Origin: Candidatus Lustribacter sp.
GTDB taxonomy: Bacteria > Vulcanimicrobiota > Vulcanimicrobiia > Vulcanimicrobiales > Vulcanimicrobiaceae
Direction of reading: 5' to 3'
DNA: 64,000 nt
Assembly (NCBI GenBank): GCA_965277805.1
Contig: OZ255842.1
Coordinates: 2,208,001 to 2,272,000, forward strand
Part shown: one piece after another, positions 2,742 through 9,845 of the stretch
Layout of the letters: the number at the start of each line of letters is the position of its first letter
Position numbering within the stretch: position 1 is the stretch's first letter
Notes under the pieces: model-generated
Seen by the model: only the letters and a program-made list of their open reading frames with translations
Databases searched by the model: none
Told to the model about the DNA's origin: nothing
Program-made: the position numbers and the translations under genes

Positions 2742-4336
2742 CAGGCGCTCACGAGATCTCGGACGGCCGCTCGTGGCACCGGCTGTTCGTAGCGCAACGC
2801 GATCGTATCGACGCCCGAGAGGATCTGATGGTGTTGCTGCAGCGGATCGATCTGCGGGAAGTCGGTGCGCCTGTGCATGCCGCGGCTCTCGGTGCGCGCG
2901 AGCGCGCTCGTATACGCCCAGCGCGCCGTTGCCGCAAGTGCGGCCGCTTCACGGGAGCGCTGCACCTCGCGCGCGCCGCCAACAACTTCCGCGCTTTGCG
3001 GCATCCCTGATGCCCATAGCCCATCCAGCACCGCGAGCGACGAACGCAGTCCCGCATCGGTGCGGAACATGTTTTTCTCGAGCGGCAGCATCTCGTTCTT
3101 CACCCTGGCAATCGCTGCGTCGGACTCGGTGATTTTCCACGTACCGGCGCCGGTGAGGCGTCGCGTCTTGCGCGACGCTCCAAGGCGCAGCGCAAAGGCC
3201 GCAGCGCCTTCGCCGGCCCACGAACCCGAGGACATCGCCCACGCGGCATTGTGACTTCCGCCGCCGGTAAAACCGCCGCAGATGCGTTCGCGCGTCGCCG
3301 CATCGCCGGCTGCATACAGACCCGGTACTCGCGATGCGCAGGTTTCATCCGTGATGCGGATGCCGCCCGTGCCGCGTACCGTTCCTTCGAGTACGAGCGT
3401 CACGGGGAAGCGTTCGTTGAACGGGTCGATGCCGCTGCGGTCGAACGGCAAGAAAAAGTTCGGTTGCGCCAACCGCAGGAAAGCCTGAACCTCGGGTCGC
3501 TCCTTGGCTTTGATCAGTTGCGCGTAGACGGGACCGTTGATCAGCGTCCGGCCGATCGTGGCAGCGGAGTGATGACCGTCCTTGACCGCCTTGATGTCTT
3601 CGCCCGCTTCGTTCGTGAACACGGCCCAACTGTAATGCGCGGTTTTCGTAACGGAGCCGAACACGGTCGAGACGGCGTATTGGCTCGAGAACTCCATACC
3701 GGAAAGCTCCGCTCCCGCTTCGCCGGCGAAGAGATAACCGTCGCCGGTGTTATTGTTCGTGCCGAGCGCCTTGCTCAAGAACGCGCATCCGCCGGTCGCG
3801 ATCACCACGGCACCCGAACGCACGGTCCAGTCACGTTCTTCCTGTTGCTGCACGCCGCGCGCGCCGGCCACGTTGCCGCTGCCGTCGACCAGCAGCTCGA
3901 GTGCAGGGCTATGATCGAGAATCTTCACTCCCGCGCGTGAGATGACTTTGCGCATCAAGCGCATGTACTCCGGACCCTGCAAGTTGCGTCGCACCGTCTC
4001 GCCGTTTTCGCGCGGGAACGGATAGCCCCACGCCTCGACCAGCTCCATGTTCGACCAGGTGCGATCGAGCACGCGATCCATCCAATCGTGGTCGGCGAGA
4101 TAACCGCCGAGCGCTTCGCGTTGCGCCTTGGCCTTTTCGCGATCTTCCGTCGTCGGCGGAATCACCCACACGCCGGTACCGCTCGGCGCGGTCGCGCCGC
4201 TCGAGCCGCAATAGCCCTTATCGACGAGCACGACCGAGGCGCCGGCTTGCGCCGCGTTCCATGCAGCCCACGTTCCGGCGGGTCCGCCCCCGATCACGAG
4301 AACGTCGGCATCGAGTTCCAAGCCGTCCTTAAACAT
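2741..4336 (-). CDS. FAD-dependent oxidoreductase, succinate dehydrogenase/fumarate reductase flavoprotein family (AsfA-like)
   Basis: DVLVIGGGPAG FAD motif, VIATGG, GLYAAGD and C-terminal RTESRGMHRRTDFP. True start is ATG 4336 with a GAGGT RBS; the longer ORF-track start runs through the terminator. Confidence 0.85.
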   Translation of the reverse strand: MFKDGLELDADVLVIGGGPAGTWAAWNAAQAGASVVLVDKGYCGSSGATAPSGTGVWVIPPTTEDREKAKAQREALGGYLADHDWMDRVLDRTWSNMELVEAWGYPFPRENGETVRRNLQGPEYMRLMRKVISRAGVKILDHSPALELLVDGSGNVAGARGVQQQEERDWTVRSGAVVIATGGCAFLSKALGTNNNTGDGYLFAGEAGAELSGMEFSSQYAVSTVFGSVTKTAHYSWAVFTNEAGEDIKAVKDGHHSAATIGRTLINGPVYAQLIKAKERPEVQAFLRLAQPNFFLPFDRSGIDPFNERFPVTLVLEGTVRGTGGIRITDETCASRVPGLYAAGDAATRERICGGFTGGGSHNAAWAMSSGSWAGEGAAAFALRLGASRKTRRLTGAGTWKITESDAAIARVKNEMLPLEKNMFRTDAGLRSSLAVLDGLWASGMPQSAEVVGGAREVQRSREAAALAATARWAYTSALARTESRGMHRRTDFPQIDPLQQHHQILSGVDTIALRYEQPVPRAAVRDLVSA

Positions 4337-4360
4337 TCTTACCTCAAAAGCACGTGTGGG

Positions 4361-4397
4361 AAAAAGAAAAAAGCCCCCCGCCGGTTGGCGGAGGGCT
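4361..4397 (-). terminator. Intrinsic terminator (attenuator) in the leader of the flavoprotein operon
   Basis: Minus strand AGCCCTCCGCC-AACC-GGCGGGGGGCT then TTTTTCTTTTT, located between the leader ORF and the flavoprotein RBS. Confidence 0.9.
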
Positions 4398-4427
4398 CGC
4401 ATTCGCACGAACAAACGGTCGAGCGCG

Positions 4428-4493
4428 CTAAACCAGCATCACACCACTACGGCGGACGGTCTCGGCGCAACAACAACGGTTCACGAACGACAT
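4428..4493 (-). CDS. Cysteine-rich leader peptide MSFVNRCCCAETVRRSGVMLV (21 aa), probably leaderless
   Basis: Hand-translated ATG 4493 to TAG 4428. Three tandem Cys codons TGT TGT TGC (4475-4467). The ATG lies 7 nt from the -10 box and the ORF precedes a terminator. Confidence 0.8.
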   Translation of the reverse strand: MSFVNRCCCAETVRRSGVMLV

Positions 4494-4500
4494 CGACGGC

Positions 4501-4530
4501 ACTGTAACACACCCTTCAAGACGCTGTCAA
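4501..4530 (-). promoter_or_regulatory. Sigma70-type promoter, leftward
   Basis: TTGACA (4530-4525), 18-nt spacer, extended -10 TGT-TACAGT (4509-4501). Confidence 0.75.
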
Positions 4531-4544
4531 ACCGGTTTGACAGC
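4523..4544. promoter_or_regulatory. Perfect 22-bp palindrome containing both -35 boxes; possible operator
   Basis: GCTGTCAAACCGGTTTGACAGC is its own reverse complement. Confidence 0.75.
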
Positions 4545-4566
4545 ATTCTACACGGCGTGTTATGGT
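4537..4566 (+). promoter_or_regulatory. Sigma70-type promoter, rightward
   Basis: TTGACA (4537-4542), 18-nt spacer, extended -10 TGT-TATGGT (4558-4566). Confidence 0.75.
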
Positions 4567-4572
4567 GCGGCC

Positions 4573-4647
4573 ATGTCGGCTCGCCGTTTCGTCTGCACGT
4601 GTCCCTGTTGTCTTGCTGGAAACGAGCGAGCCTTGTTTGTGATGTAG
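4573..4647 (+). CDS. Cysteine-rich leader peptide MSARRFVCTCPCCLAGNERALFVM (24 aa), probably leaderless
   Basis: Hand-translated ATG 4573 to TAG 4647. Four Cys in six codons (TGC ACG TGT CCC TGT TGT, 4594-4611). The ATG is 6 nt after the -10 box and there is no SD. Confidence 0.8.
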   Translation: MSARRFVCTCPCCLAGNERALFVM

Positions 4648-4671
4648 GCGTTTCTGCCGCCGCGTCCGTGC

Positions 4672-4705
4672 AAGCCCTCGCTCGAGCGAGGGCTTTTTTA
4701 TTTTT
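4672..4705 (+). terminator. Intrinsic terminator (attenuator) in the leader of the sulfonate ABC operon
   Basis: AAGCCCTCGC-TCGA-GCGAGGGCTT then TTTTATTTTT, about 35 nt before the SBP start. Confidence 0.9.
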
Positions 4706-4740
4706 GTTGCCGTCCGCCCGAAAGGCCAGAGACCGTTCGA

Positions 4741-5802
4741 ATGAATCATCACCTTACGCGCCGCGCGAGCCTCGCTGCAATAGGCGCGCTCGTCGCAACC
4801 GGAACCCGCGCATTTGGCGCCGAGGCGACGCCGCCCGTCATCCGCCTCGGCGGGGTCGGCTACGGTTACGGCAAGCCGTTTGGAGAGCACGCCATCGCCG
4901 TCGCGCAAGCCCAACGCTTCGTCGAAGCCGAGACGAAGTTTGCCGTGCGCGTCGAGTATACGTATTTCGACCACACCGGACCGGCCATCAACGAAGCGCT
5001 TGCAGCCGGCCAGCTCGACTTCGCAAGTTATGGCGAACTGCCGCAAATCATCGGCAAGGCGAACGGGCTCCAAACGCGGATCGTCGCCAACGGCGGCATC
5101 AGCAACATCTATGTGGGCGTTCGCAACGGCGTCAAGGCGAACACGATCGCCGATCTCAAAGGACTGCGCGTCACGCTCCAGCGCGGGACCATCTTACATC
5201 AAGCCTTGGATCGGCTGCTCGCCGAAGCCGGCTTGTCCGAAAAAGACATTCAACTCTACGACCTGCCCACGGCCGACCAGTTGACGGCGCTCAGCAGCGG
5301 CCAGGCCGACGCGAGCGTGGGGACCGCATCGCTCCTCACGCTGCGCGATCAGGGCCTGGTGCGCGTCATCTACTCGACGGCAGGCAAGACCACGCCGGAC
5401 GGCATCAACGCCGTTGCCGTCACTGAAGACTTCTCGAGCAAATATCCGGGCGCGACCGGCGCCGTCGTGCGCGCGTTCGTGAAGGCGGCGAATTGGACGG
5501 CCCAGCCGCACAATCGCGACGCCGTGCTGGATATCTGGGCTAAGTCGGGCCCGCCGCGTAAGGTCATCGCCGAAGATCTGGCGGGCCCGCTCAAAGACAC
5601 GGACATTCCGCTCATCGACGAATTGTTCGTGGCCGGTCTCAAAGTCGGCATCGACTTCTCCGTTCGCAACAAGTTGATCCGGCAGGCCTTCGACGTCGAT
5701 GCTTGGATCGACCGGCGCTACGTTGATGCCGCGCTTCGCGATCTCAATCTGGTGAGCTACTGGCAACCGCGCCACGCCCCGCCGTCGCTCGCCAAAGACT
5801 AA
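4741..5802 (+). CDS. Sulfonate-type ABC solute-binding protein (SsuA/AsfC-like)
   Basis: GPAINEALAAGQLDFASYGELP and IADLKGLRVTLQRGT motifs, twin-arginine-like signal LTRRASL, followed by two permeases and an ATPase. Confidence 0.88.
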   Translation: MNHHLTRRASLAAIGALVATGTRAFGAEATPPVIRLGGVGYGYGKPFGEHAIAVAQAQRFVEAETKFAVRVEYTYFDHTGPAINEALAAGQLDFASYGELPQIIGKANGLQTRIVANGGISNIYVGVRNGVKANTIADLKGLRVTLQRGTILHQALDRLLAEAGLSEKDIQLYDLPTADQLTALSSGQADASVGTASLLTLRDQGLVRVIYSTAGKTTPDGINAVAVTEDFSSKYPGATGAVVRAFVKAANWTAQPHNRDAVLDIWAKSGPPRKVIAEDLAGPLKDTDIPLIDELFVAGLKVGIDFSVRNKLIRQAFDVDAWIDRRYVDAALRDLNLVSYWQPRHAPPSLAKD

Positions 5803-5807
5803 GCCCG

Positions 5808-6647
5808 ATGATACGCGCGATCCCGTTCGTCGACATTGCGAACGCACCGGCCCTCGGACGGCCTGCGCGCGCCGCCGCGCAGCGCGGGCGAAGCCGGTGG
5901 CGCTCGGCCGCTCTCGGCGCGATCGTACCGCTTGCGATACTTGCGCTGTGGTCGCTCACGGTTGCATTGCACGCGATGCGATCGCAAATTTTGCCGAGCC
6001 CGCCGGCGGTGTTGGCCGCAGCAGCCGATTTGCTCCGCAGCGGCGATCTCGCCGCAGCACTCGGCGTGAGCCTCGGACGGGTCGCTCTCGGCCTCGCGAT
6101 CGGAAGCGCCTTCGGCCTCGTTGCGGGCGCTGCGCTTGGGCGCTCGCCGGCGCTCGACGCCTACTTCGGCCCGGCTCTGCGCGCGATCTGCCAGATTCCG
6201 ACGATCGCGTGGCTGCCGGTGTTCATGCTGATCTTCGGTATCGGCGAAGAACTCAAAGTCGCGATCATCGCGAAGGCTGCCTTCCTACCGATGCTGCTCA
6301 ATGCGTTCGCAGGCGTGCGCACCGCGCCGGCGCGCTACCACGAAGTCGCGAACGTGCTGGAATTCAGCCCGCTGCAGCGACTGCGTTTCGTGACGATTCC
6401 ATCCGCGCTGCCGATGATCGTCTCGGGTTTACGCCTGGCATTGAGCAACGCGTGGCACGTGCTCATCGTCGTTGAGATGCTTGCATCCGCATCCGGCATC
6501 GGCCATCTCATGGCGTGGAGCCGCACGCTTTTCCAACTCGACGTCGTTTTCGTCACCGTGGTCGCGATCGGTGCGACCGGGTGGCTCATGGATACCGCGA
6601 TGCGAGCGGCCGAACGCCGTTTGAGCCCCTGGAGCACGTCCGCATGA
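5808..6647 (+). CDS. ABC permease, SsuC/TauC family
   Basis: LPSPPAV, QIPTIAWLPVFMLIFGIGE, IPSALPMIVSGLRLAL and VEMLASASGIG motifs. Confidence 0.9.
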   Translation: MIRAIPFVDIANAPALGRPARAAAQRGRSRWRSAALGAIVPLAILALWSLTVALHAMRSQILPSPPAVLAAAADLLRSGDLAAALGVSLGRVALGLAIGSAFGLVAGAALGRSPALDAYFGPALRAICQIPTIAWLPVFMLIFGIGEELKVAIIAKAAFLPMLLNAFAGVRTAPARYHEVANVLEFSPLQRLRFVTIPSALPMIVSGLRLALSNAWHVLIVVEMLASASGIGHLMAWSRTLFQLDVVFVTVVAIGATGWLMDTAMRAAERRLSPWSTSA

Positions 6648-7429
6648 CGCGGCCGCTCGCTCGCCGTCGCATCGATCTTCGCGGCGCCGTCGTTCCTCTG
6701 GTGCTCGCAGTGGGCTGGATCGTCGCCTCGGTGTCGGGCCACTGGGATCCGCACATGCTCGTCCCGCCCGGTCAGCTCGCGCGCGGCTTTATCGCGACGG
6801 CGCAAAACGGCGAGTTTTGGACTGCGGCGGGTGCGAGTCTGCTCCGTCTCGTGACCGGTTGGCTGGCGGGATCGGTCGCCGGCGTTGCGCTCGGCCTCAT
6901 CGCCGGCTGCTCCGCGCCGGCTGAGCAAATAATCGCGCCATCACTCAACGCCGTGCGTCAAGTCGCGCTGTTCGCGTGGATTCCATTGCTCACCGCGTGG
7001 TTCGGCGACGGCAACTCGGCCGAAGTGTTCTTGATCGCGCTCGCGGCGTTTTTTCCGGCCGCACTCAACACCGAAACCGGCTGCCGCAACGCTCCGATCG
7101 CCTTACGCGAAGTGGGCCGCGTCTTGGAATTCGGCCCGCGGGAAATACTTCGCCGCATCATCATTCCGTCAGCCATGCCCTCGATCGCCTCGGGATTGCA
7201 GATCGCCCTGACGTCCGCCTGGATCGGCACGATCGGCGCCGAGTATCTCATCGACCAAGGCAACGGCCTTGGCGTGTTTCTTTCTTCTGCCCGAATGGAT
7301 AATCGCATGGACGTCGTCCTCTTCTGCATCGTTGCCTTAGGCTGCATCGGGTACGGCCTGAGCACCGCGCTCCGTCTCGCCTTTGCGTCCGCTGCGCCGG
7401 CAACGGCACTGGCAGCCCTCGATGACTGA
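6644..7429 (+). CDS. ABC permease, SsuC/TauC family (second copy)
   Basis: ATGA overlap with the previous stop. RQVALFAWIPLLTAWFG and IPSAMPSIASGLQIAL motifs. Confidence 0.9.
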   Translation: MTRPLARRRIDLRGAVVPLVLAVGWIVASVSGHWDPHMLVPPGQLARGFIATAQNGEFWTAAGASLLRLVTGWLAGSVAGVALGLIAGCSAPAEQIIAPSLNAVRQVALFAWIPLLTAWFGDGNSAEVFLIALAAFFPAALNTETGCRNAPIALREVGRVLEFGPREILRRIIIPSAMPSIASGLQIALTSAWIGTIGAEYLIDQGNGLGVFLSSARMDNRMDVVLFCIVALGCIGYGLSTALRLAFASAAPATALAALDD

Positions 7430-8183
7430 GCGCGGCCGCCTCGACATTCTCAATGTCGACAAGTCGTTCTACGTCGATGGTGCGGAGGTACGGGCATTGG
7501 CCGGCGTTTCGCTCACGGTGAACGCCGGTGAATTCGTCACCATCGTCGGCCCGAGCGGTTGCGGCAAGTCAACGCTGCTGCGACTGGTGGCCGGTCTCGA
7601 CCGCGCCGGCAACGGCACGGTTTCGTTCGACGGTGAGCCCGTCGTCGAACCGAGCCTGCGCCGCGGCGTCGTCTTTCAAGACCACCGCCTCTTCCCATGG
7701 CTGAACGTCGAAGCCAACGTCGCCACCGGCCTGCTCAAAGCCGGCGGATTCGACGCCGAAAAACGCACAACCGCTTCGCGGCTCATCGCGCTCGTGGGCT
7801 TGAGCGGTTTCGAAAAAGCGTTTCCGCATCAGCTCTCGGGCGGCATGGCACAGCGCGCGGCGATCGCGCGCAGCCTCGCCGCGAAACCCGACATTCTGCT
7901 CCTCGACGAACCCCTCGGTGCGCTGGATTCGCTCACGCGCGGCCGCATGCAGGCCGAGCTGCTGCGCGTCTGGCAGCACGAGAAGACGACGATGCTCATG
8001 GTGACGCACGACGTGGGCGAGGCTGTCTATCTCTCCGATCGCATCGTCGTGATGGATCGCGATCCGGGCCGAATCCGCGAAATTATCGAGGTCCCGTTCC
8101 CCAAACCCCGCACCCGCCTCGACCCCGCCGTCGCCGCCTTCACCGAACGCATCATCGCCCGCCTAGAAACGGCGCCGGCATGA
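7422..8183 (+). CDS. ABC ATP-binding protein, SsuB/TauB family
   Basis: Walker A GPSGCGKST, signature LSGGMAQRA, Walker B LLLDEP, VTHD. Confidence 0.93.
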   Translation: MTERGRLDILNVDKSFYVDGAEVRALAGVSLTVNAGEFVTIVGPSGCGKSTLLRLVAGLDRAGNGTVSFDGEPVVEPSLRRGVVFQDHRLFPWLNVEANVATGLLKAGGFDAEKRTTASRLIALVGLSGFEKAFPHQLSGGMAQRAAIARSLAAKPDILLLDEPLGALDSLTRGRMQAELLRVWQHEKTTMLMVTHDVGEAVYLSDRIVVMDRDPGRIREIIEVPFPKPRTRLDPAVAAFTERIIARLETAPA

Positions 8184-8249: not shown

Positions 8250-9845
8250 CTAGTATCCGAGCGCAATCCCATCCTTACGCGGATCGCTGCCACCAACGAG
8301 CACCCCACGCTCGCGATCGATAAAGATCGCCTGCCCACCCCCATGCGGCGGATCAACCTCAACCACATGATGCCCGCGCGCCGCTAACCCCTCGCGCGTT
8401 TTCACCGGAATGCCGCGCTCGACATACACATCGCCGAACATCGGCATCACGCGCGGGAGATCCAGCGCCGCCTGCACATCCAGCCCGTGATCGAACATGT
8501 TGGTCAACAGCAAACTCTGCCCGACCGGCTGAAAATGCCCGCCCATCACACCGAAGGGCATCACGGCTTGTCCACCGTGCGTCAGCATTCCCGGGATGAT
8601 CGTATGCATCGGCCGTTTTCCCGGCGCGAGCGCATTCGGATGCCCACGCCGAAGCTCGAACGACTGCCCGCGATTGTGTAACAGCACGCCGCTGCGCTCG
8701 GCATAAATCGTCGAGCCGAAACTCTCGAAGAGCGAGTTGATGAAACTGCATGCGTTCCCGGCTTCATCAACCACCGTGAGATACACCGTATCGCGATGCA
8801 CCGGCAGCCGCGACTCGCCCGGCTCCGGCAACTCCGCCAGCGCCCGATCGTCATCGATCAGCCCGCGCAGCGCACTGAGATACTCGCTCGACAACAGCCG
8901 GTCTACCGGGACCTCAACTGCCGTCGGATCGGCCAGAAACGCATCGCGATCGCGGAACGCCAACCGCGCAGCTTCAATATGACGATGCAGTCGCAGCGCT
9001 CCGAGCGGCCCATCCGCCTTTCCTAGCCCATCTAAGATTCCGAGAATCATCAACGCAATGAGTCCTGAACCGTTCGGCGGGCACTCCCAAACCTCAAAAC
9101 CCTTCCACGCCAACCGAATCGGATCGACAAACTCGGCACCCGTCATACCTGCTGCAAAATCGTCCTCGGTGTGCACGCCGCCGCGGGCCCGGAGCGTCCG
9201 CACGATATCCGCCGCGACCTCGCCGCGATAGAATGCCTCAGCACCGTTCGCCGCAATCGCGCGCAGCGTTTGCGCAAGCGCCGGATTGGACATGCGATCC
9301 CCCGCGCGCGGCGCCTGACCGCGCGGCAGATACGCCGCAAGTCCGGCGCTCCGAAGCCGCGCCGCGCTGAGCCGCCAATCGTAGGCCAGGCGCGGCTGCA
9401 CCACATAGCCTTCGACGGCAAACGCAATCGCCGGCCGCAGTAGCTCATCGAGCCCGCGGCTCCCGAAGCGCGCGCTCAGCGTTACCCACGCCGATATCGC
9501 ACCGGGAATCGTGACCGAGTCCGGGCCGTTCGGGTCGATGAACTGATCGCCGCGTGCTCGAATCGCGTCGAGGTCGATCGCGGCCGGCGCGCGTCCCGAC
9601 CCGTTCAACGCATACACGCGCCCACTGCCCGCCGGCGCGTAGAGACAAAACACGTCCCCGCCGATGCCGGTCGACTGCGGCTCGACTACCGCCAGCACCG
9701 CCGCCGCCGTAATCGCCGCATCCATTGCGTTTCCGCCGCATCGCAACATGTCGACCGCTGCCGACGTTGCTTGCGGCATCGAGGTCGCCGCCATGCCGTG
9801 GTCCGCGTACATCGGGCCCCGGCCGGGCGCATGAAAATCGCGCAT
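8250..9845 (-). CDS. ggt: Gamma-glutamyltransferase family protein (no signal peptide)
   Basis: GGNAMDAAI, VVEPQSTGIGGD, autoproteolysis site D-TVYLTVVD, PGKRPMHTIIP, GVMGG and GGSDPRKDG. Confidence 0.92.
   Translation of the reverse strand: MRDFHAPGRGPMYADHGMAATSMPQATSAAVDMLRCGGNAMDAAITAAAVLAVVEPQSTGIGGDVFCLYAPAGSGRVYALNGSGRAPAAIDLDAIRARGDQFIDPNGPDSVTIPGAISAWVTLSARFGSRGLDELLRPAIAFAVEGYVVQPRLAYDWRLSAARLRSAGLAAYLPRGQAPRAGDRMSNPALAQTLRAIAANGAEAFYRGEVAADIVRTLRARGGVHTEDDFAAGMTGAEFVDPIRLAWKGFEVWECPPNGSGLIALMILGILDGLGKADGPLGALRLHRHIEAARLAFRDRDAFLADPTAVEVPVDRLLSSEYLSALRGLIDDDRALAELPEPGESRLPVHRDTVYLTVVDEAGNACSFINSLFESFGSTIYAERSGVLLHNRGQSFELRRGHPNALAPGKRPMHTIIPGMLTHGGQAVMPFGVMGGHFQPVGQSLLLTNMFDHGLDVQAALDLPRVMPMFGDVYVERGIPVKTREGLAARGHHVVEVDPPHGGGQAIFIDRERGVLVGGSDPRKDGIALGY

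Follow-up and report, generated by a model that had tools for sequence, protein, structure and literature searches.

Described cysteine leaders and the locus

Classical transcription attenuation is hardly documented for cysteine, and the cases found are those of mycobacteria, of actinobacteria and of the cysS gene of Rhodobacterales. In mycobacteria, polycysteine leaderless short open reading frames (ORFs) are described as forming a "Cys ribulon", in which control is reported to be translational, through a hidden ribosome-binding site that is freed (Canestrari et al., 10.1101/834739). Leader ORFs with runs of Cys codons before cys operons were reported for Actinobacteria, where terminators are given as absent (Seliverstov 2005, PMC1262725). 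The uORFC-8-2 motif is presented as a predicted attenuator before cysS in Rhodobacterales, with tandem Cys codons and a terminator stem followed by a U-run (Brewer et al. 2021, PMC8632094). For Streptomyces lividans, leader peptides lacking a 5' untranslated region and followed by a hairpin and a U-run have been reported (LeuL2, TrpL1 and IlvL; PMC8079986). The element considered here is a short Cys-rich leader at positions 4573-4705 on the forward strand of a 64,000-nucleotide (nt) stretch of the genome of Candidatus Lustribacter sp. (contig OZ255842.1, positions 2,208,001 to 2,272,000). This whole stretch is called the window below, and positions are those of the window. The leader, termed the rightward leader, lies directly ahead of genes for an SsuA-like ABC transporter.

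Candidatus Lustribacter belongs to the Vulcanimicrobiota, the former Eremiobacterota, of which very few members have been cultured, and the open-access literature searched yielded no account of attenuation or of leaderless leaders for either Eremiobacterota or Vulcanimicrobiota. As modelled here, the rightward leader is probably a transcription attenuator of the trp/his type, mediated by the ribosome and sensing cysteine, that controls the SsuA-like ABC transporter operon. The parts of such a switch, mutually exclusive pairings between them, the rarity of the arrangement among shuffled sequences, its conservation and a sulfur-related gene context are all observed in silico.

Architecture of the rightward leader

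The leader is preceded by a sigma-70-type promoter on the forward strand (4537-4566), which matches the consensus at 10 of 12 positions and consists of the -35 hexamer TTGACA (4537-4542), an 18-nt spacer, a TG and the -10 hexamer TATGGT (4561-4566). Two promoter-like sites are present between 4200 and 4900, against 0.1 expected from shuffled sequences, and the scan of this interval gave no further forward-strand promoter ahead of the transporter gene, including the gap between the terminator and the operon. Around the -35 hexamer, a perfect 20-bp palindrome, CTGTCAAACCGGTTTGACAG (4524-4543), is formed by two back-to-back -35 hexamers and a palindromic ACCGGT centre. It is preserved in the related genome G004, and in another relative, G006, the centre has 5 nt and is not palindromic. 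The palindrome could be an operator, or a mere consequence of promoter geometry.

An ORF of 24 codons encoding MSARRFVCTCPCCLAGNERALFVM begins with the ATG at 4573 and ends with the stop codon TAG at 4645-4647. Its regulatory Cys codons (4594-4611) comprise TGC at 4594 and TGT at 4600, 4606 and 4609, the last two forming a consecutive Cys-Cys pair (4606-4611); Cys thus takes up four of seven codons, compared with 0.94% of the codons in the long ORFs of this genome. The ATG lies 6 nt past the -10 hexamer, a spacing that is identical in all four leaders of the rightward type (see below) and that amounts to 6-8 nt in most other Cys leaders. Six nucleotides past the -10 hexamer is the usual position of the transcription start. 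Because the ATG occupies this position and no Shine-Dalgarno-like purine run occurs within 20 nt 5' of it, we lean towards a leaderless leader mRNA, judging by spacing alone. Transcription would then be expected to start at, or one to two bases from, the A of the ATG at 4573.

A first-pass annotation of this DNA had proposed a set of alternative RNA segments within the leader, with coordinates that were confirmed by direct reading of the sequence. Segment 1 (GGCTCGCCGTTTC, 4578-4590) is the 5' strand of a 1:2 anti-antiterminator. Segment 2 (GAAACGAGCGAGCC, 4619-4632) has two alternative partners, segment 1 and, for its stretch 4623-4630, segment 3, and the four Cys codons lie between segments 1 and 2, as had been described. 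In the free fold, segments 1 and 2 form 13 pairs with one bulged A, in keeping with the single bulge announced for this helix; the core of segment 2, CGAGCGAG (4623-4630), indeed matches CTCGCTCG (4677-4684) as an exact reverse complement.

Segment 3 (4670-4684), the 3' strand of the antiterminator, consists of GCAAG (4670-4674) and CTCGCTCG, and overlaps the 5' arm and loop of an intrinsic terminator, with 4677-4681 located in the arm and 4682-4684 in the loop. The resulting 2:3 helix has 13 pairs, made up of 4623-4630 with 4677-4684 and an extension of 4632-4636 with 4670-4674. It encloses a middle hairpin (4634-4671) that folds, holds the stop codon and contains the block TGATGTAGGCG, conserved at the nucleotide level. 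The terminator itself (4672-4705), identified by a terminator scan, has a stem of 10 pairs (4672-4695), of which 7 are G-C, and a loop of 4 nt, followed by the T-run TTTTTTATTTTT; the energy of the isolated hairpin is -18.8 kcal/mol. An exact complement of at least 8 nt to the 5' arm and loop, as present in this leader, is reached in 16 of 1000 shuffles. A scan of positions 3900-5200 against Rfam release 15 (E up to 10) returned no match at or above the gathering score. The best sub-threshold match on the forward-strand leader was suhB with 20.5 bits (gathering score 41), and Leu_leader scored 17.8 bits (gathering score 50); such matches are driven by the terminator.

From this architecture we infer not only the start site but also ribosome stalling, a kinetic competition between helices and a response to cysteine. 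A ribosome would start on the leaderless 24-codon ORF while RNA polymerase proceeds. When Cys-tRNA(Cys) is scarce, this ribosome would stall when its A site is occupied by one of the four Cys codons (4594-4611), covering segment 1 (4578-4590) and leaving CGAGCGAG (4623-4630) exposed, which would pair with CTCGCTCG (4677-4684) once this has been made and be extended by pairing of 4632-4636 with 4670-4674. With its 5' arm sequestered in this manner, the terminator would not form and the polymerase would read into the transporter genes. When cysteine is plentiful, the ribosome would traverse segment 2 up to the stop codon (4645-4647), and the terminator (4672-4705) would form. Should translation fail altogether, pairing of segment 1 with segment 2 would also let the terminator form.

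Folding of the rightward leader

The free leader RNA is predicted to fold into the 1:2 helix, the middle hairpin and the terminator, at -60.5 kcal/mol (z = -3.5; none of 200 shuffles equal). The terminator is thus contained in the unmasked fold, in line with the earlier expectation that absence of translation favours termination. Constrained folding, which the first-pass annotation had suggested as a check, gave the predicted exchange of structures. When positions 4573-4609 or 4573-4620 were masked, as by a ribosome on the Cys codons, the minimum free energy (MFE) structure was the 2:3 helix enclosing the middle hairpin, and the terminator was lost. When 4573-4660 was masked, as by a ribosome that has reached the stop codon, the MFE structure contained the terminator, as it also did when the footprint at the stop codon alone was masked. 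With the 3' arm of the terminator forced to remain unpaired, the antiterminator fold of the stalled state has an energy of -30 to -32 kcal/mol.

The frequency of such behaviour by chance was estimated with 1000 sequences in which 4573-4669 had been shuffled with preservation of dinucleotide content and the native terminator retained. The full switch, with a terminator in the free RNA that is lost under both stall masks, was obtained in 3 of these 1000 shuffles, and a switch under the single mask to 4620 in 14. The masked folds, together with this rarity, the conserved design and the sulfur context presented below, support the earlier proposal that a stall on the Cys codons would free segment 2 for the antiterminator. 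A fold of 4573-4775, computed as a test for concealment of the transporter gene's ribosome-binding site, gave z = -1.58 and is not significantly structured. The 23 sequencing runs listed for positions 4300-5300 include no RNA run.

Conservation in close relatives

In a DNA search of 60 relatives, full-length similarity was found only in G004, where the intergenic region is 86% identical, and partial similarity in G006. Four right-type leaders could be aligned, namely those of this genome (G000_R), of G004 (G004_R) and of G006 (G006_R), and a paralogous leader of G004 (G004_P) that precedes a second FAD oxidoreductase gene. Each has four or five Cys codons, and the three-segment design is retained in the two other species and at the paralogous locus. 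Over the four leaders, pairing is kept in 96% of the 50 cells of the 2:3 helix, a figure that drops to 18-50% if the partner strand is slid along the alignment, and the corresponding values for the 1:2 helix are 89.6% and 21-54%. In the RNAalifold version of the 1:2 stem, a double change from U-A to C-G is found in columns 13/65. The leader of G004 (L002:1714-1785) has undergone a 1-nt deletion that moves the conserved block TGATGTAG into another reading frame: its peptide ends with ..ALI before a TGA stop codon, compared with ..LFVM before TAG in the present genome. Since the block was shifted in frame and its nucleotides were kept nevertheless, the constraint acts on the RNA and not on the peptide.

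Cys-rich leaders across the phylum

A covariance model built from the four right-type leaders gave matches at E <= 0.01 in 53 of the 151 genomes of a family-level sample. The 29 non-self family-level loci that were inspected comprised 10 Cys-rich leaders, 2 Met-rich leaders, 1 aromatic leader, and 16 ordinary gene ends or other terminators. At the level of the phylum, 20 of 151 sampled genomes had matches at E <= 0.001, and Cys-rich leaders were recognised at 4 of the 11 new loci. The genes found behind Cys-rich leaders encode PAPS reductase (cysH; L020 and L031), a NIR_SIR sulfite reductase (L017, a single example from the unpublished genome G072), TauE (L018), binding proteins scoring above the SsuA_fam cut-off (L050, L054 and L057), binding proteins of the phosphonate-bd type (L021 and L022) and, in another family of this phylum, the N-terminal domain of cysG (L053). 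Further first genes encode a FAD oxidoreductase (L012), a homoserine dehydrogenase (L028), a 1-Cys peroxiredoxin (L035) and a protein without family match (L027). It is the sulfur and cysteine genes in this list that argue most strongly for the Cys codons as the sensor.

The Cys codons of these leaders also differ in usage from those of ordinary genes. TGT represents 14.9% of the Cys codons in the long ORFs of this genome, which has a single gene for tRNA-Cys(GCA), and accounts for 45 of the 64 Cys codons in 17 leaders (loci L001-L035), although these leaders are related and do not count as independent events. At the present locus, TGT makes up three of the four Cys codons of the rightward leader and two of the three (4475-4467, minus strand) of a divergent leader on the opposite strand. 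A preference for the wobble-read TGT may tune the sensitivity of stalling.

Generality of the antiterminator and alternative explanations

Several results weigh against an attenuator that works through the 2:3 helix. In the rightward leader itself, a stall at the last Cys codon has little margin, and a mask extended to 4624 makes the MFE structure revert to the terminator. Among the four aligned leaders, 10 of the 13 pairs of the 2:3 helix are invariant and a double change is seen in one pair only, a result matched by 253 of 500 shuffles; what the alignment supports is therefore conservation of the helix and not covariation. In G004_R, the 1:2 helix is weakened and the free MFE structure is the antiterminator fold, which contradicts termination in the absence of translation for that leader. 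Stall masks were also applied in equilibrium folds of 17 Cys leaders, one of which (L020) had been cut at the wrong T-run and was left unscored, the pairs of G004_R and G006_L being taken from printed structures. The terminator was lost in 3 of the 17 (G000_R, G004_R and L035) and retained in 13, the orthologue G006_R and the paralog G004_P among them.

Exact complementarity gave a similarly divided picture. For this test, the 3' half of the terminator 5' arm and the loop served as the target, and a complement was taken as notable if no more than 50 of 1000 shuffles reached it. It was unremarkable in 14 of 20 leaders (142-996 of 1000 shuffles), which also counts against the 2:3 helix; the divergent leader mentioned above is one of them, with a longest exact complement to its terminator arm of 4 nt, equalled by 976 of 1000 shuffles. 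The six notable cases are the rightward leader, G004_R, L012 (8 nt, 36 of 1000 shuffles), L020 (9 nt, 6 of 1000), L054 (8 nt, 46 of 1000) and L057 (10 nt, 5 of 1000). These six leaders have four different sequence pairs at one structural place, which amounts to a loose covariation favouring the attenuator model. A duplex-energy test of 10 leaders gave modest values, with 14 to 272 of 500 shuffles. An antiterminator of this kind would thus be only partly general among Cys leaders.

The same counts suit an alternative that we consider unlikely, in which the Cys leader does sense cysteine and the signal is relayed by Rho/NusG-dependent polarity, by pausing or termination efficiency, or by mRNA stability, the 2:3 helix being incidental or auxiliary. 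The 14 of 20 leaders of the phylum without a notable antiterminator complement, among them the divergent twin only 80 nt away, and the 13 of 17 MFE folds that keep the terminator in the stalled state would be accommodated by such a relay. So would the Cys leaders of mycobacteria, reported to function without a terminator (10.1101/834739), and those of Actinobacteria, reported without terminators (PMC1262725). At the rightward leader, however, the last Cys codon lies 61 nt ahead of the terminator arm, so that a ribosome stalled there cannot block the hairpin directly and a relay through RNA is required, and one that is strong and rare by chance is present. Moreover, in folds of the nascent transcript, from which the 3' arm is still absent, the terminator 5' arm is paired upstream over 7-11 nt under a last-Cys stall in all 10 leaders, compared with 0-5 nt when the ribosome is at the stop codon. 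Equilibrium folds that favour the terminator are compatible with a kinetic switch; the terminator of the E. coli trp operon is likewise more stable than its antiterminator.

It is very improbable that the unit of 130 nt represents an independent small gene, ending in a terminator of its own and specifying a Cys-rich micro-protein or a small RNA, with no part in regulating the transporter operon. The unit does possess a promoter and a terminator of its own, and weak Rfam small-RNA matches lie over the terminator, at a sub-threshold 14-23 bits compared with gathering scores of at least 40. Nevertheless, the peptide is unconserved beyond the Cys cluster, with a C-terminus that is frame-shifted in G004 over retained nucleotides, and no promoter-like site for the operon lies past the terminator. 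In addition, cysH, cysG, sulfite reductase, TauE and SsuA genes elsewhere in the phylum have unrelated Cys-rich ORFs at the equivalent position ahead of them. We give equally little credit to main control by a DNA-binding regulator at the palindrome CTGTCAAACCGGTTTGACAG, which spans both -35 boxes, with a terminator that merely damps expression constitutively: proteobacterial sulfur-starvation genes are under LysR-type regulators, and the palindrome is perfect here and kept in G004, but two back-to-back TTGACA hexamers largely account for it, the 5-nt centre in G006 breaks it, a repressor would explain neither the cluster of Cys codons nor the alternative helices, and such a regulator would be compatible with an attenuator rather than exclusive of it. 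Ribosome-mediated attenuation through the three segments is the reading that we retain as the most likely one for the rightward leader.

The transporter operon and the divergent leader

The operon that the rightward leader would control (4741-8183, forward strand) encodes a binding protein, two permeases and an ABC ATPase (Pfam NMT1, BPD_transp_1 and ABC_tran). The binding protein (4741-5802) is SsuA-like and periplasmic, with a twin-arginine-like signal, and obtains 137.5 bits with the NCBIfam model SsuA_fam, below the cut-off of 163.5. By NCBIfam, the two permeases (5808-6647 and approximately 6632-7429) are SaoP/SsuC/TauC-like and the ATPase (7383-8183) is SaoA-like. These similarities, with an SsuA_fam score under the cut-off, point to sulfonate-type uptake in the service of sulfur acquisition as the probable function. 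When contigs were searched with the binding protein as a guide, 9 loci came up; the close relatives are limited to two of them, at 89% and 80% identity, each in a metagenome-assembled genome of Vulcanimicrobiota. A gamma-glutamyltranspeptidase gene (8250-9845, minus strand; Pfam PF01019, E 2.7e-136) is convergent with the end of the operon, which hints at a connection with glutathione as a source of sulfur or cysteine.

The divergent Cys-leader twin (4371-4530, minus strand) has its promoter back-to-back with the rightward one, with a -35 hexamer at 4530-4525 and a -10 hexamer at 4506-4501. Its leader ORF (4493-4428, ATG at 4493) reads MSFVNRCCCAETVRRSGVMLV and is followed by a terminator with a stem of 12 pairs (4398-4371; terminator scan). 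The twin's operon consists of genes for a FAD oxidoreductase (4336-2741), which comes first behind the leader, a ferredoxin (2741-2397) and a Rieske-type oxygenase (2336-1068), all on the minus strand. The leftward twin may work differently from the rightward leader. A match to the leader model was also noted on the strand opposite a Cys leader in species G007 (L012:1281-1408, minus strand; 14.3 bits, E 0.005), in which the divergent layout may thus recur.

Leaders for other amino acids

Leaders rich in other amino acids occur in the same bacterial family, at L019 (genome G024), L034 (G110), L037 (G109) and L004 (G021). Behind the Met-rich leaders stand genes for Cys/Met PLP enzymes (Pfam PF01053), behind a Phe/Tyr/Trp-rich leader a prephenate-dehydratase-like gene, and behind a Leu/Val-rich leader an acetolactate-synthase-like gene, the last two genes being named by eye.

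Within the genome of Candidatus Lustribacter sp. itself, a strict scan for a promoter, a start codon 5-9 nt past the -10 hexamer, a short ORF and a terminator returned five units: the two Cys leaders, a Thr/Ile-rich leader, a Val/Leu/Ile-rich leader, and one unit before an rplJ-like gene. The Thr/Ile-rich leader leads to a homoserine-dehydrogenase-like gene and the Val/Leu/Ile-rich leader to an ilvC-like gene, these genes and the rplJ-like one being named by eye from their N-termini. On the basis of these five units, leaderless leader peptides seem to be the normal form of attenuators in this organism. Leaderless-looking leaders with terminators were seen outside the window at G000:C1 395602 (+) and 476753 (+), and the sequences MSAVRAIMTTTIMTIPLGEGECRSVLV and VLNPVRLGLVVIVLVALTGRRGIAA stand ahead of the homoserine-dehydrogenase-like gene and the ilvC-like gene, respectively, as named by eye. 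A scan of the same genome for Cys leaders gave eight candidates, among which the pair at the present locus alone convinces, and the other six were dismissed for their resemblance to out-of-frame stretches in G+C-rich coding sequence.

Significance and comparison with known systems

The locus is of interest for its phylum and the amino acid that it would sense, for a design that is probably leaderless, for the twin on the other strand and for its bias towards UGU. Cys leaders offer a direct prediction of cysteine-responsive genes in uncultured soil bacteria, and the rightward leader offers a compact design for a leaderless sensor. Its twin without an obvious antiterminator provides a natural comparison for what leader peptides need in order to control terminators. 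It is possible, though we would not yet favour it, that Vulcanimicrobiota run much of their sulfur acquisition and their cysteine pathway through a "Cys ribulon" of their own instead of through a dedicated transcription factor. Such a system may combine constitutive promoters with leaderless poly-Cys ORFs coupled to intrinsic terminators, and its sensitivity may be set by the preference for wobble-read UGU together with a single tRNA-Cys. At the present locus, where two units diverge from a palindromic -35 core that they share, ribosomes alone may set the output of both, and their mechanisms may differ, a 2:3 antiterminator being clear on the right and none being recognisable on the left.

The rightward locus most likely represents a clean and complete trp-style attenuator for cysteine, an example in Vulcanimicrobiota of a known class of switch. 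It would share with the trp, his, leu, thr, ilv and pheA attenuators of E. coli and Salmonella a leader ORF in which codons for the sensed amino acid are clustered, mutually exclusive 1:2, 2:3 and 3:4 pairings and an intrinsic terminator ahead of the first structural gene, as well as the logic by which a stall leads to readthrough, and full translation or none to termination. Unlike in these classical systems, the amino acid sensed would be cysteine, and the genes regulated would serve uptake rather than a biosynthetic pathway. The leader ORF is probably leaderless, whereas trpL is led by a Shine-Dalgarno sequence, the loop between segments 1 and 2, and not segment 1 itself, holds the regulatory codons, and the stop codon is located past segment 2.

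Among leaders for cysteine, the mycobacterial Cys ribulon, as far as it is described in the report cited, resembles the present element in that sulfur or cysteine operons begin with a short ORF (leaderless there, and probably so here) that has at least two consecutive Cys codons; the present element would resemble it further in the coordination of several operons of one lineage through the supply of Cys-tRNA and ribosome pausing (10.1101/834739). The strong terminator and antiterminator of the rightward leader would place it, unlike the mycobacterial cases, under transcriptional attenuation, and in another phylum; no sequence relationship with the mycobacterial leaders as presented there was seen. 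The uORFC-8-2 motif, according to its description, has two Cys codons, located inside the first stem, and is given only before alphaproteobacterial cysS genes (PMC8632094), compared with four codons in the loop of the 1:2 hairpin here. Like the present element it is a prediction only, and the element described here precedes a transporter gene in Vulcanimicrobiota. The leaders reported for S. lividans sense Leu, Trp, Ile/Val, Met, Thr or Ala (PMC8079986), and cysteine would be sensed here. On the evidence of these accounts, the S. lividans and the actinobacterial leaders have one each of two properties, an intrinsic terminator behind a leader without 5' untranslated region in the former and a Cys-run ORF in the latter (PMC1262725), and the rightward leader would unite them in a probably leaderless Cys ORF followed by a terminator.

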